In this document: positions 1,681 to 26,192 of the stretch, piece by piece | Position numbering within the stretch: the first letter of the stretch is position 1 | How the letters are laid out: every line of letters starts with the position of its first letter | NCBI RefSeq assembly: GCF_003334405.1 | Contig: NZ_QOWM01000003.1 | From: Escherichia coli | GTDB taxonomy: Bacteria; Pseudomonadota; Gammaproteobacteria; Enterobacterales; Enterobacteriaceae | Direction: 5' to 3' (one strand) | DNA length: 64,000 nucleotides | Notes under the pieces: model-generated | Database searches by the model: none | Told to the model about the DNA's origin: nothing | What the model saw: only the letters and a program-made list of their open reading frames with translations | Made by a program: the position numbers and the translations under genes

Positions 1681-3073
<1,393 letters not shown>

Positions 3074-3266
3074 TTATATGAGAGACTAAAAAGCCGCCTG
3101 AATGGGCAGCAAAAAGAAGAAGCAGGGGAAATTCAGTCTATTGTAGCGAGGATTTATTAATTCTCCAGTGAAAAAATAGCCATTCTTACCCCTTCACTGG
3201 TAAGGGCGTTTTCCACCTGCTATTGTGCTGAACAGAATGTCTTAACTGATTTCAGGAGTTGTAAGT

Positions 3267-3908
3267 ATGTTTACGGGGATTGTACAGGGCACCGCAAAAC
3301 TGGTGTCGATTGACGAGAAACCAAATTTTCGTACGCATGTGGTGGAGTTACCCGACCACATGCTGGACGGCCTGGAAACCGGTGCTTCCGTGGCGCATAA
3401 CGGTTGCTGCCTGACCGTGACGGAAATTAACGGCAACCATGTCAGTTTTGACCTGATGAAAGAAACGTTACGCATTACCAATCTTGGCGATTTAAAAGTG
3501 GGGGATTGGGTAAACGTTGAGCGTGCGGCGAAATTCAGTGATGAAATTGGCGGACACTTAATGTCAGGTCATATTATGACCACTGCTGAAGTGGCGAAAA
3601 TATTAACCTCAGAAAATAATCGCCAGATCTGGTTTAAAGTCCAGGATAGTCAGTTGATGAAATATATTCTGTACAAAGGATTTATTGGCATCGACGGTAT
3701 TAGCCTGACCGTCGGCGAAGTCACGCCAACGCGTTTTTGCGTCCATTTAATTCCGGAAACACTGGAACGCACGACTCTTGGGAAGAAAAAACTTGGCGCA
3801 CGCGTCAACATTGAAATCGATCCACAAACTCAGGCAGTGGTAGATACGGTAGAACGTGTGCTGGCGGCACGAGAAAATGCCATGAATCAACCAGGCACAG
3901 AAGCCTGA
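3267..3908 (+). CDS. ribC: Riboflavin synthase alpha subunit, 213 aa
   Basis: [51 protein letters not shown]... shows the internally duplicated lumazine-binding fold typical of riboflavin synthase (ribC, also called ribE). Confidence 0.95.
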
Positions 3909-3914
3909 TCTGAA

Positions 3915-3937
3915 ATCGCCCCCGGAGAGGGGGCGAT
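3915..3937. terminator. Bidirectional terminator hairpin between convergent ribC and cfa
   Basis: ATCGCCCCC-GGAGA-GGGGGCGAT perfect GC-rich hairpin immediately after the ribC stop and before the cfa stop. Confidence 0.55.
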
Positions 3938-3947
3938 AGAATAGCCT

Positions 3948-5096
3948 TTAGCGAGCCACTCGAAGGCCGTTTTCAACACCGCGTGAGAACACGACCTGCC
4001 AGAGCTGAATATCACGGGCGCGGAAAGCACCTGCACAGGCATTCAGATAATAGGTAAACATTCGTTTAAAGCGTTCACTATAGTTATCCGCAATTTCTGG
4101 CCATGCGGCGAGGAATCGTTCATACCACGCCATCAACGTAGTATCGTAATCAGCACCGAAGTTATGCCAGTCTTCCATCACAAAGTGGGGTTCGCTGGAC
4201 TGAGCAATCTGGCGTACAGAGGGCAGGCAACCGTTCGGAAAAATATATTTATTAATCCAGGGATCAACATTCAGATCGGTTTTTTTCGAACCGATAGTAT
4301 GGAGCAGGAATATGCCTTCCGGTTTCAAATTACGATCCACCACCGCAAAATAGGTATCGTAATTTTTCGGTCCGACGTGCTCGAACATCCCCACAGAAAC
4401 AATACGATCAAACTGGTCGTTCAGGTCACGATAATCTTGCAGCAAAATGGTGACATCCAGGCCTTCACAGCGTTCCTGAGCCATTTTTTGCTGTTCGGCA
4501 GAAATGGTGACGCCCACCACGCTTACGTCATAATTAGATGCCATGTAGTGTGCCAGTCCGCCCCAGCCGCAGCCAATATCCAGTACGCGCATCCCTGGTT
4601 TTAACTGCAATTTTTCACAAATCATTTTGAGCTTCGCCTGCTGGGCAGATTCCAGATTATCGGCATCTTTCCAGTAAGCGCAGGAATATTGCATGAAGGG
4701 ATCAAGCATGCGGCTGAACAAGTCATTACCCAAATCGTAATGCTCTTTGCCGACTATCCAGGCACGTTTTTTACTCTGCAGATTGAAGAGACGAGCGCCG
4801 GCAATACGCAGCGTGTCTTTGAAATGATGGGGGAGTTGGTTCTCGAGACCTGCGCGTAAGACTTTGCTAAAAAACATATCCAGTCGGTCACATTCCCACC
4901 AGCCATCCATATAACTTTCGCCTAACCCCAAAGAGCCTTCTTGCAGAACGCGTTTAAAAAAATCGGGGTTTTTCACACGAATATCCGCCGGGGCAGAACC
5001 GTTAATGGCTATACCGGCACGGCTAAGTAATTCGTTGGCGATACGGTACCAGTTGTCATCCGGTACACTGACTTCTTCTATACACGATGAACTCAT
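3948..5096 (-). CDS. cfa: Cyclopropane-fatty-acyl-phospholipid synthase, 382 aa
   Basis: ORF carries the SAM-binding motif VLDIGCGWGGLA and is full length for Cfa. Confidence 0.96.
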   Translation of the reverse strand: MSSSCIEEVSVPDDNWYRIANELLSRAGIAINGSAPADIRVKNPDFFKRVLQEGSLGLGESYMDGWWECDRLDMFFSKVLRAGLENQLPHHFKDTLRIAGARLFNLQSKKRAWIVGKEHYDLGNDLFSRMLDPFMQYSCAYWKDADNLESAQQAKLKMICEKLQLKPGMRVLDIGCGWGGLAHYMASNYDVSVVGVTISAEQQKMAQERCEGLDVTILLQDYRDLNDQFDRIVSVGMFEHVGPKNYDTYFAVVDRNLKPEGIFLLHTIGSKKTDLNVDPWINKYIFPNGCLPSVRQIAQSSEPHFVMEDWHNFGADYDTTLMAWYERFLAAWPEIADNYSERFKRMFTYYLNACAGAFRARDIQLWQVVFSRGVENGLRVAR

Positions 5097-5386
5097 AGTT
5101 TCTCCATCACTGGTCGGTGATCAGAACCTTAAAACAGCGTAGACGCTTTTTGGGCTTTGTGAGAAATCTCGCAGAAAAAACCGCGAGTCTATAATCCGAC
5201 GTAGAACAGAGGGAAAGGAGGAACCCTTGCCGAAATGACTATCCATAGTGAGTCGGGAACGATCCTGTCCCCGTAAAAACATAATATTTATCGTAGCTTT
5301 AACAACTCGAAATTAGTATAGGCCGCTAATTTCAATCATACAACAAAATTTTGTTAGCAGCCTAAGTATAAGTATATCGATATAGA

Positions 5387-6598
5387 TCAGTGTGATTCGC
5401 TATGAGCGACTTCGGCATTGCCATGATTCTGGCAGCCAACTTCTTCACAACGTTGCATCATGTAACCCAGCGCGACCAGCACTACTGTTGATAACATCAC
5501 GCTGGTGGTGGTGAGCAATGGCGTGCTGATACTGATCAGCCAGGAAACTACCAGACTTGCGAGGAAGCACAGACCCAGTTGAAGAGTGTTCTGCAACGCT
5601 GCGGCGCGACCAGTTGCGTGTGGGAAGGGACGCAGCGCCTGGGCGACAACAATAGGGTAGATCGCGCCATTGGCAATCGCCATCACACAGAATGGGATCA
5701 GGATTTCGACCAGCGACACATGGCTAATGAAGCCCGCAGCCCAGGTCGCAATGACGCTGACAGCAAACAGCACCAGCAACCACGGTAATAACTGCTTGCC
5801 TTGCCATTTCTGCAGCGCGGCGCGACAGCCATAACCACCAATCAGAAACGCGATAGTTTGCGGGACATAACTTAAACCAATAACTGCCGGGTTGTAGCCC
5901 ATTTCACTAAGGATGAACGGTGAACCGGTCAGCCATGCAAAAAAACTGGCTGAACAGGCTGCGTATATCAGCACGTTGCCGCGATAGGTTTTAGAACGTA
6001 GCAGGTCGGTAAAGGTCAGACCATCCTGACTATTGTTACGGGCCTTCGTCGTGGGTTTGAGCCAGAAAATAGGCAGAATCAGCACCACGGTAATGGCAAA
6101 CAGGGTGGCGAAAATCGCCTGCCAGGAAAAATGGACCAGCAGCCAGCTTCCTAACAGAGGAGCCAGTGCCGGAGATAGACCCACCAGCGGCATGATGGTC
6201 GCAAAAATACGGTTAACTTTCTGTGAAGGATAATAATCTGTCACTAATGCTTGCCAGATAACCGCCGCGGCGCAGACACCCACAGCCTGTACAAAACGCA
6301 ATACCAGCAGCGTAGCGGCGTTTTCTACCCACAGCATCCCCAGACTACCTAACGCAAAAATTGTCAGGCCGATTAATAATACCGGTTTACGACCATAACG
6401 GTCGGAGAGCGGCCCCCACAGAAGCTGGGCTGCGGCAAAACCGGCAAGGAACAGACTAAGGCTGGCACTGACAGCAGACGCAGGCGTTTGCAGGTCGGCC
6501 TGTATGGCGGCGAAAGCAGGCAGATACATATCGGTTGCCAGAAAACCGAGTACGCTCAAACCCGCCAGCCAGACTAAAAATCTTTTCCCAGGTTGCAT
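5387..6598 (-). CDS. ydhC: MFS transporter (purine nucleoside exporter PunC/YdhC), 403 aa
   Basis: 12-TM MFS-like ORF, divergent from the LysR regulator ydhB as in K-12. Confidence 0.9.
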
Positions 6599-6710
6599 GT
6601 ATATTCTCTAAATCTCTCAATTAAACACCGCCGCAAAGTGTAGGGAGTGAAATTAGTGTTGTGAAACGGTAATATTTGATGACTGGTTTCAAAAATTTTG
6701 CAGGCAGACT

Positions 6711-7643
6711 ATGTGGTCAGAATATTCACTCGAAGTTGTTGATGCGGTAGCGCGTAATGGTAGTTTTAGCGCTGCGGCACAGGAGCTGCATCGCGTTCCT
6801 TCTGCGGTCAGCTATACCGTGCGTCAGCTGGAAGAGTGGCTGGCGGTGCCGCTCTTTGAACGACGGCACCGTGATGTGGAGCTGACCGCTGCTGGAGCGT
6901 GGTTTCTCAAAGAAGGGCGCTCTGTTGTCAAAAAAATGCAGATCACCCGCCAGCAATGTCAGCAGATAGCGAACGGCTGGCGCGGTCAGTTAGCTATCGC
7001 AGTGGATAATATTGTCAGGCCAGAACGTACACGGCAGATGATCGTTGATTTTTATCGCCATTTTGATGATGTCGAACTTCTTGTCTTTCAGGAAGTGTTC
7101 AACGGTGTCTGGGATGCGCTTTCCGACGGGCGCGTGGAACTGGCGATTGGCGCAACACGCGCGATTCCGGTAGGCGGTCGTTATGCCTTCCGGGATATGG
7201 GGATGCTAAGCTGGAGTTGCGTTGTTGCCAGTCACCACCCGCTGGCGTTGATGGATGGCCCGTTCAGCGATGATACGTTGCGCAACTGGCCGTCGTTGGT
7301 GCGCGAAGACACCTCGCGAACGCTACCTAAACGTATTACCTGGTTGCTGGATAACCAAAAAAGAGTTGTCGTGCCTGACTGGGAATCATCGGCAACCTGT
7401 ATCTCGGCAGGATTATGCATAGGGATGGTGCCAACACATTTCGCCAAACCGTGGCTTAATGAGGGGAAGTGGGTAGCATTAGAACTGGAAAACCCCTTTC
7501 CGGATTCGGCATGTTGTCTGACATGGCAGCAAAATGATATGTCGCCTGCGTTAACCTGGTTGCTTGAGTATCTCGGCGATAGTGAGACGCTGAATAAGGA
7601 GTGGCTGCGGGAGCCGGAAGAGACTCCCGCAACGGGTGATTAA
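6711..7643 (+). CDS. ydhB: LysR-family transcriptional regulator (PunR/YdhB), 310 aa
   Basis: N-terminal helix-turn-helix ([36 protein letters not shown]) followed by a LysR substrate-binding domain; divergent from ydhC. Confidence 0.9.
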
Positions 7644-8665
7644 CGACGATAGTCGCGGAACGGGCCGTCAGCCACGGAGCGGCGTTCAATCAAGCGCGGA
7701 TGCACTTCAATAGACTGCGGTTCTTCACGTTTGTTGACGATACGATCCAACAGCATGTTGAACGCTGTTTCACCCAGCGAATCTTTTGGCTGATGGATCG
7801 TGGTCAGCGCCGGCGTAAAATAGCGCGCGTTGCGCACGTTATCATAACCGATCAGCGAAACATCCTGCGGGACGCGCAGGCCCATTTCATCAGCAGCACA
7901 AAGTGCGCCCATTGCCATGATATCGCCACCACAGAAGACGGCAGTAGGGCGATGCGGCTGCGACAGGATTTGCTGCATGGCGCGATAACCGGATTCAGGT
8001 TCAAAGTCACCCTGCACAATCCAGCTTTCCGGCACCTTGATCATCGCTTCTTCCATCGCCTTCATAAAACCGGCAAGGCGGCCTGCGCCGGTGTTACGTT
8101 CCAGCGGGCCGGGGATGACGCCGATTTCGCGGTGACCGCGTTCAATCAGATAACGCCCGGCCATGTAGCCGCCTTCGAACGCGTTATCAATGACCGCATC
8201 GGTGAAGTCAGCTTTTGCTTCACCCCAGTCCATGACCACCATTGGGATATGGCGATACTCTTCCAGCATCGCCAGCAACGGCTCTGGGTACTCAGAACAC
8301 ATCACCAGCAGACCATCGACGCGTTTTTGCGCCATCATCGACAGATAAGCCCGCTGTTTCTCAAGATTGTTCCACGCATTGCCCAGAATCAGGGTGTAAC
8401 CTTTCTGGAAGCAATTTTTTTCAACTGCTTCAATGATCTCGGCAAAATAGGCCGCTTCGCTGCTGGTCGCCAGCAAACCGATAGACTTGGTGTGGTTAAC
8501 CTTCAGGCTACGCGCCACCGCGCTAGGGGAGTAGTGTAATTCTTTAATCGCTGCCCACACGGCGTTGCGCGTTTCTTCAGCGACGAAACGTGTTTTGTTG
8601 ATCACGTGTGACACAGTTGTAGTGGAAACGTTTGCTCGTTTCGCTACATCTTTTATTGTTGCCAT
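7640..8665 (-). CDS. purR: Purine repressor PurR (LacI family), 341 aa
   Basis: [56 protein letters not shown]...; overlaps the ydhB stop by 4 nt in convergent orientation. Confidence 0.97.
8623..8638. promoter_or_regulatory. PUR-box-like operator inside the 5' end of the purR coding region (autoregulation site O2)
   Basis: TGGAAACGTTTGCTCG contains the GCAAACGTTT half-palindrome core of the PurR operator (revcomp CGAGCAAACGTTTCCA). Confidence 0.6.
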
Positions 8666-25729: not shown

Positions 25730-25741
25730 TTAGCAAGCTAA
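25730..25741. promoter_or_regulatory. SlyA operator palindrome overlapping the slyA ribosome-binding site
   Basis: TTAGCAAGCTAA is an exact match to the published SlyA consensus palindrome, 11 bp upstream of the slyA ATG; a second related inverted repeat, TTAGCAATACAATTGCTG, lies at about 25684..25701. Confidence 0.75.
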
Positions 25742-25757
25742 TTATAAGGAGATGAAA

Positions 25758-26192
25758 TTGGAATCGCCACTAGGTTCTGATCTGGCACGGTTGGTGCGCA
25801 TATGGCGTGCTCTGATAGACCATCGCCTGAAACCGCTGGAGTTAACACAAACCCATTGGGTTACGTTACACAATATCCATCAGTTACCTCCAGACCAGTC
25901 GCAAATTCAACTGGCAAAAGCGATTGGCATCGAGCAGCCATCACTGGTCCGTACTCTGGACCAACTGGAAGAAAAAGGGTTAATTTCGCGTCAAACTTGT
26001 GCCAGCGATCGTCGGGCTAAACGTATTAAACTGACGGAAAAGGCAGAGCCGCTGATCAGCGAAATGGAAGCTGTTATTAACAAAACCCGCGCGGAAATAT
26101 TACATGGCATCTCCGCAGAGGAACTGGAGCAACTGATTACGCTCATCGCAAAACTTGAGCATAATATCATTGAGTTACAGGCCAAAGGGTGA
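25758..26192 (+). CDS. slyA: MarR-family transcriptional regulator SlyA, 144 aa (TTG start; alternative ATG at 25752 gives 146 aa)
   Basis: (M)[78 protein letters not shown]... winged-helix MarR fold. Confidence 0.93.

Follow-up and report, generated by a model that had tools for sequence, protein, structure and literature searches.

The cfa control region of an Escherichia coli isolate is the unchanged K-12 version and carries a conserved palindrome resembling the SlyA consensus

We studied the region upstream of the cfa gene in a stretch of 64,000 nucleotides from Escherichia coli (NCBI RefSeq assembly GCF_003334405.1, contig NZ_QOWM01000003.1), hereafter referred to as the window. In the ORF listing, cfa occupies positions 3948-5096 and punC (also known as ydhC) positions 5387-6598, both on the minus strand. 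Positions 5097-5386 form an exact 290-bp non-coding interval between the stop codon TGA of punC (5389-5387) and the ATG of cfa (5096), in agreement with a preliminary description of this DNA that had reported a non-coding stretch of this length between cfa and the 3' end of ydhC. As both genes are on the minus strand, the promoter and the leader are also on the minus strand. The gene order, according to the RefSeq annotation of identical DNA, is purR, punR, punC, cfa, ribE/ribC, and mdtK. In the laboratory strain g83, an IS5 is found between ribE and mdtK (L001 5940-6920, compared with window 3053-3266); it is absent from both the window and E. coli K-12 MG1655.

By alignment, 290 of the 290 bases are the same as those of MG1655, and the flanking genes are also the same. 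In MG1655, the region has been characterised by primer extension, footprinting, and compensatory mutagenesis (PMC6755755, PMC12691595). The interval is the well-studied, already known control region of cfa, which this isolate carries in its unchanged K-12 version, with zero sequence differences and with all of the mapped sites on the bases stated for K-12 cfa. The P1/P2 promoter region of K-12 cfa is said to have been described by Wang and Cronan in 1994. Because of the identity to K-12, we regard the interval as ordinary, with the exception of a conserved palindrome upstream of P1. The same DNA, at 95% identity or more, was present once in 5425 of 5426 complete E. coli genomes; one of the 5426 genomes lacked the region, and one additional copy was plasmid-borne. 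Among the Rfam covariance models searched over positions 3000-8000, nothing relevant was detected, and the sole match was a chance-level one to Chlorobi-1 (16 bits, E = 0.98) inside punC.

The GC content of the whole interval is 40.3%, against 51.0% on average for the window, which places it at the 2.8th percentile among 290-nt windows. It is 29.5% in the untranscribed part at 5309-5386 (0.6th percentile) and 22.9% in the leader from +1 to +35, and has the ordinary value of 48.6% from +36 to +212. The AT-richness claimed in the preliminary description was thus found in the promoter and the first 35 nucleotides of the leader, but not in the remaining leader (about 49% GC). The string quoted there as an example of the leader is the plus strand of 5312-5362, which lies antisense to the P1 -10 and -35 elements and the DNA upstream of them; as the leader begins at 5308, this part of the description did not hold. 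The terminator scan detected no terminator-like hairpin after the punC stop codon (5366-5392), and transcription may therefore read through from punC into cfa.

To place published sites on the window, position -n from the ATG was converted to 5096+n and position +n from the P1 start to 5309-n. Under both conversions, all of the bases named in the literature agree with the window sequence. The coordinates of the features are collected in Table 1.

Table 1. Features of the cfa upstream region in the window. Positions with a plus sign are counted from the P1 start.
Feature	Window coordinates	Strand	Remarks
Palindrome TTAGGCTGCTAA, -57 to -46 of P1 (centre -51.5)	5354-5365	-	Candidate MarR-family operator
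P1 (sigma-70) -35 element, TTGTAT	5338-5343	-	17 bp upstream of the -10 element; TTG invariant in alignment A3
P1 -10 element, TATACT	5315-5320	-	5/6 columns invariant in 24 sequences; ends 6 nt before the published start
Long cfa leader, 212 nt	5097-5308	-	P1 start G5308 (-212, +1); PMC6755755, PMC12691595
Hfq-binding region, -195 to -161	5257-5291	-	PMC6755755
HP1, +36 to +55, CGGGGAC-AGGAUC-GUUCCCG	5254-5273	-	Covariation in 24 sequences
Predicted GcvB pairing site, +57 to +74	5235-5252	-	Best windowed duplex, -22.7 kcal/mol, with GcvB nt 154-171
Stem-loop, +78 to +97	5212-5231	-	CpxQ seed site formed by the 5' arm GGCAAGGG (5231-5224); CU tract masked by the loop and 3' arm
CU-rich tract UUCCUCCUUUCCCUCU, +86 to +101, core of the Rho utilisation site	5208-5223	-	16/16 pyrimidines
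Overlapping RydC site (5205-5195) and ArrS 5'-end site (5200-5191)	5191-5206	-	Seed complementarity
HP2, +123 to +143, CUCGCGG-UUUUUU-CUGCGAG	5166-5186	-	Most stable local fold
P2 (sigma-S) -10 region TCTACGCT	5136-5143	-	Upstream of the published -34 start
Short leader, 34 nt	5097-5130	-	P2 start A5130 (-34); PMC6755755
Short-leader hairpin, AUCAC 5121-5117/GUGAU 5110-5106 and UCU 5125-5123/AGA 5103-5101	5101-5125	-	Local fold

The -10 and -35 elements suited to the -212 and -34 starts are correctly spaced and conserved. In most other genera, the P1 -35 element is TTGAAT. A consensus promoter scan of the E. coli interval gave no promoters because the P1 -35 element is weak (3/6); the same scan recovered P1, as TTGAAT-17-TATACT, in Cronobacter and Shimwellia. 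In the P2 region (5146-5131), 9 of the 16 columns are invariant among 24 sequences. The C just upstream of the TACGCT hexamer in TCTACGCT presumably reflects the preference of sigma-S. The arrangement of a distal sigma-70 promoter and a proximal sigma-S promoter given in the preliminary description is supported, the region being base-for-base the characterised MG1655 DNA (PMC6755755). According to that paper, P1 is constitutive, P2 is RpoS-dependent, and regulation by sRNAs is limited to the long isoform.

Within the leader, the U-run sequence UGUUUUUAC of the Hfq-binding region is present at 5281-5273 on the minus strand. The stem at +78 to +97 was recovered by local folding. Its bases G78, G79, and C80 correspond to 5231-5229, matching the bases mutated in PMC12691595, and the C80A change would turn a C/U mismatch in the stem into an A-U pair. 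Similarly, the compensatory mutants G135C and G101C fall on G5231 (-135) and G5197 (-101), and the G residues at -143, -147, and -148 on 5239, 5243, and 5244. The RNase E cut GG|AUUAU between -100 and -99 corresponds to 5196|5195, within the RydC/ArrS site. Rho-dependent termination was reported to need the CU tract, and the segment from +1 to +138 was required for Rho dependence (PMC12691595).

We examined pairing with the leader by using the RydC, ArrS, and CpxQ sequences of MG1655. RydC nucleotides 3-13 form 11 contiguous pairs with +104 to +114 (-17.7 kcal/mol), ArrS nucleotides 1-10 pair with +109 to +118, and CpxQ nucleotides 4-11 pair with +78 to +85 inside the best overall CpxQ duplex (-18.3 kcal/mol). 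The seeds of all three sRNAs are thus complementary to the leader at the published sites, which lie on the stated bases; this supports the proposed role of the long 5' UTR as a target of these sRNAs. The expected numbers of chance sites per 212-nt leader are 0.003 for RydC, 0.0065 for ArrS, and 0.05 for CpxQ; therefore, the RydC and ArrS sites are meaningful by themselves, and the CpxQ seed, an 8-bp match that is frequent by chance (18 matches in the window), leans on the published experiments. For the energies, 22-nt windowed scans replaced full-length RNAduplex, which produced an unrealistic, loop-ridden duplex. The windowed energies ranked other duplexes, such as that of the RydC pseudoknot region with the leader, above the RydC and ArrS seeds, so energy alone fails to single out these two sites among stronger, presumably inaccessible duplexes elsewhere in the leader. 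The predicted GcvB site agrees with the placement upstream of the CpxQ site in PMC12691595. The pairings of ArrS C7 and CpxQ C11 fit the published numbering exactly. In the case of RydC, the annotated 5' end (L002 943-1007) places C5, not C4, opposite G-101, although the published compensatory pair is RydC C4G with cfa G101C; the numbering probably differs by one base.

From these results, we consider it almost certain that the interval is the native cfa control region, with the promoters P1 and P2 and with a leader that contains a Rho site and is tuned by sRNAs, the mechanism being that of published work on identical DNA. Our own evidence consists of the identity to MG1655, the placement of the landmarks, the complementarity of the sRNAs, and conservation; the start sites and the sRNA effects in the isolate we infer from the identical K-12 DNA. 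According to this mechanism, the constitutive sigma-70 promoter P1 would start at G5308 and give the 212-nt leader, and the sigma-S promoter P2 would start at A5130 in stationary phase and give a 34-nt leader not subject to the sRNAs. Within the long leader, the CU tract and the following sequence to about +138 would act as a Rho utilisation site and cause premature termination, with the stem-loop partly hiding this site. CpxQ, aided by Hfq bound upstream, would pair with the 5' arm and open the stem, leading to more termination and to repression of cfa. RydC and ArrS would pair just downstream, covering part of the Rho site as well as the RNase E cut, and would thereby give more full-length mRNA and activate cfa. 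The current model of sRNA action on cfa centres on the control of premature termination by Rho and does not rely on protection from RNase E alone (PMC12691595). RydC is in turn under the control of YieP, FnrS, and OmrB (PMC11340327).

For comparison between genera, the 14-mer GTTCTACGTCGGAT was scanned in representative genomes and gave at least 120 matches. Among the 120 matches listed, 17 are located 110-114 nt upstream of a cfa ATG and the other 103 are mostly due to chance; only these 17 were used. Sixteen of them come from named Enterobacteriaceae (Escherichia, Citrobacter, Enterobacter, Lelliottia, Pluralibacter, Cedecea, Pseudescherichia, and Shimwellia) and one from a MAG labelled only Proteobacteria. 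Nine more genera were reached through the Cfa protein, so that the RydC site played no part in their selection: Cronobacter, Kosakonia, Phytobacter, Kluyvera, Superficieibacter, Scandinavium, Salmonella, Klebsiella, and Raoultella. All nine have the punR-punC-cfa synteny and an interval of about 290-300 bp. Four alignments (A1-A4) were made, of which A3 contains 24 sequences, and 27 Enterobacteriaceae sequences were used in the comparison of the palindrome. As a validation of the comparison, the Salmonella locus (L134) shows the GG|AUAAC and GGCAUUAA variants given in PMC6755755.

The conserved blocks are the -10 and -35 elements, ACGATAAATATTA, the CpxQ site, the CU tract, the RydC site, the P2 region, and the Shine-Dalgarno (SD) sequence with the short leader; the DNA directly after punC is unconserved across the alignment. 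In the RydC/ArrS site, A3 shows 13 invariant columns out of 17, and the RydC site is intact in seven of the nine independently chosen genera. Klebsiella pneumoniae (L135) has a 1-nt deletion at this site (TGTT-TACGTCGGAT), and Kosakonia cowanii (L129) has a G-to-T change (TACGTCTGAT). The block ACGATAAATATTA (+15 to +27, 5282-5294) has a mean identity of 0.88 amid a variable early leader. It resembles the high-affinity H-NS motif TCGATAAATT.

The palindrome upstream of P1 is conserved as strongly as the -35 element, and its distance to that element is fixed in every sequence. Its mean column identity is 0.90, compared with 0.52 for the 27 nt just upstream (A3, 24 sequences), and of the 27 Enterobacteriaceae sequences, 26 retain both the TTAG and the CTAA arm, the exception being Kosakonia with CTAT; as all of the taxa are Enterobacteriaceae, shared ancestry inflates this apparent conservation. 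The cross-genus consensus TTAGCTTGCTAA is the reverse complement of TTAGCAAGCTAA, the published consensus of SlyA (PMC5797941, PMC2156107). The E. coli box matches TTAGCAAGCTAA at 10 of 12 positions, with a full fit to TTA-N6-TAA, and the other 26 sequences match at 9-12 positions. The match is 12/12 in six sequences (Cedecea, Cronobacter, Phytobacter, Kluyvera, and two Enterobacter-labelled isolates) and 11/12 in Salmonella, Klebsiella, and Raoultella. The marbox, MntR, OxyR, Lrp, and GAD box motifs were also considered for the palindrome, and their spacing or half-sites did not fit.

These observations suggest that the palindrome may be an operator at which SlyA or another MarR-family dimer modulates P1, as a layer added to the known control and not as a replacement for it. 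We regard this as possible and put it forward tentatively. Conceivable modes of action include opposition to H-NS at the AT-rich promoter and interference with the contacts made by the alpha subunit of RNA polymerase. The slyA gene, a 146-aa ORF at 25752-26192, is only 20 kb from cfa within the window and has a perfect autoregulatory box TTAGCAAGCTAA directly upstream (25730-25741). The proven SlyA sites of hlyE, at -61 to -50, match at only 6-8 of 12 positions. On the other hand, a match of 10/12 does not reach significance when one genome is considered, with four matches of two mismatches or fewer observed in the window and 5.0 expected, so the evidence is the conservation, and the palindrome could serve another protein. 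In addition, cfa is absent from the table of E. coli SlyA targets in PMC5797941, and a literature search found no link between SlyA and cfa within its coverage; some older SlyA papers fall outside this coverage and may list the cfa box.

The folding of the leader was also examined. Taken as a whole, the leader has a fold of ordinary stability (z = -0.25), and three local hairpins, HP1, HP2, and the short-leader hairpin, were found. In the 24 sequences, 97.9% of the cells are paired in HP1, 97.6% in HP2, and 99.6% in the short-leader hairpin, and six of the six counted pairs of HP1 have changed on both sides; these counts overstate independence, as the structures were derived from the same alignment and the taxa come from a single family. 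Folding of the first 59 nt gives HP1 as the centroid structure, and the compensatory changes support it.

One reading of HP1, which we consider unlikely, is that it serves as an early intrinsic attenuator that releases an Hfq-bound 5' fragment of about 59 nt, so that the 'Hfq site' would partly be a terminator-like module. The compensatory changes would fit an attenuator, and a U-run follows the hairpin in most genera; the hairpin is terminator-like by scan in Cronobacter (L128 1627-1643) and Shimwellia (L116 3815-3794). In E. coli, a 3' end at +59 (PMC12691595) and an Hfq CLIP region that covers the hairpin (PMC6755755) point in the same direction. However, the E. coli hairpin is followed by GACUCACU instead of a U-run and is not called as a site by the terminator scan, its local fold reaches only z = -1.17, and the +59 end could equally arise by 3' trimming to the hairpin after Rho-dependent termination.

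HP2 (-11.1 kcal/mol, z = -3.8) folds better than all of the shuffled sequences (0/200 fold as well) and is kept through exchanges among G-C, G-U, and A-U pairs. It lies inside the +1 to +138 Rho segment, just downstream of the RydC/RNase E site; no discussion of a role for HP2 was found in the available portions of the literature on the cfa leader. The short-leader hairpin partly covers the SD sequence GGAG (5105-5102). Its stems are invariant and its loop is variable, with no compensatory changes in the 24 sequences, and this pattern is suggestive of a conserved SD-covering hairpin in the short leader. Such a hairpin would occur in both mRNA isoforms.

We also considered whether the 53-codon ORF at 5282-5121 on the minus strand, with its ATG at +27, encodes a small protein whose translation controls cfa. 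This ORF lies within the leader in the sense orientation and runs across the Rho site, but the ATG is not preceded by an SD sequence and is lost in Enterobacter (TTAAGT), Citrobacter werkmanii (TTAGGT), Pluralibacter, Scandinavium, and Salmonella (TTAGGC), and the frame is broken by indels in other genera. As neither the ATG nor the frame is conserved, the ORF is probably non-coding, and control by its product is very improbable. Still less probable is that the isolate makes only the short leader and leaves the sRNA sites silent; we found nothing in favour of this reading, and its promoter and leader are those of MG1655, in which both the P1 and the P2 starts were detected by primer extension (PMC6755755).

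The native control region with both promoters and the sRNA-tuned Rho-site leader can be compared with known systems. The cfa leader of Salmonella enterica (Frohlich 2013, as cited in PMC6755755) resembles that of E. coli in architecture and in having the RydC site, the CU tract, the P2 region, and the SD sequence, whereas its early leader and its RNase E motif (GG|AUAAC) differ from those of E. coli and the U-run of the E. coli Hfq region is missing. The Salmonella palindrome is TTAGCACGCTAA (11/12), compared with TTAGGCTGCTAA (10/12) in E. coli. Attenuation of the rpoS type, in which sRNAs control Rho-dependent termination (discussed in PMC12691595), likewise involves a long 5' UTR with a Rho site and sRNAs that pair with the leader and alter elongation; a difference is that termination in cfa is raised by one sRNA, CpxQ, which opens the stem, and lowered by other sRNAs. 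With the SlyA operators of slyA, hlyE, and fimB (TTAGCAAGCTAA or TTA-N6-TAA), the cfa box shares the form of a 12-bp palindrome, the 10/12 match, and the TTA-N6-TAA fit. Its position is close to that of hlyE SlyA site Ia, and it too lies at an AT-rich promoter; for the cfa box, the literature search gave no evidence of binding by SlyA or of cfa expression that depends on it.

For the isolate, the confirmation mainly shows that the preliminary description identified the region correctly and that the K-12 version of the control region is carried unchanged. What our analysis adds is a base-accurate map of the published sites, covariation support for HP1, and a conserved box of SlyA consensus, the box being a modest lead and the HP1 hairpin a lesser one. 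It is doubtful, though conceivable from the conserved box, that a working SlyA operator wires cyclopropanation to SlyA across the Enterobacteriaceae, on top of the control by sigma-S and by sRNAs and Rho; counter-silencing of H-NS may possibly also be involved at cfa P1 through this box. If SlyA binds, the 'constitutive' cfa promoter would gain the transcriptional input that it has been missing, and the cyclopropanation of lipids would be tied to a regulator of envelope and virulence genes.
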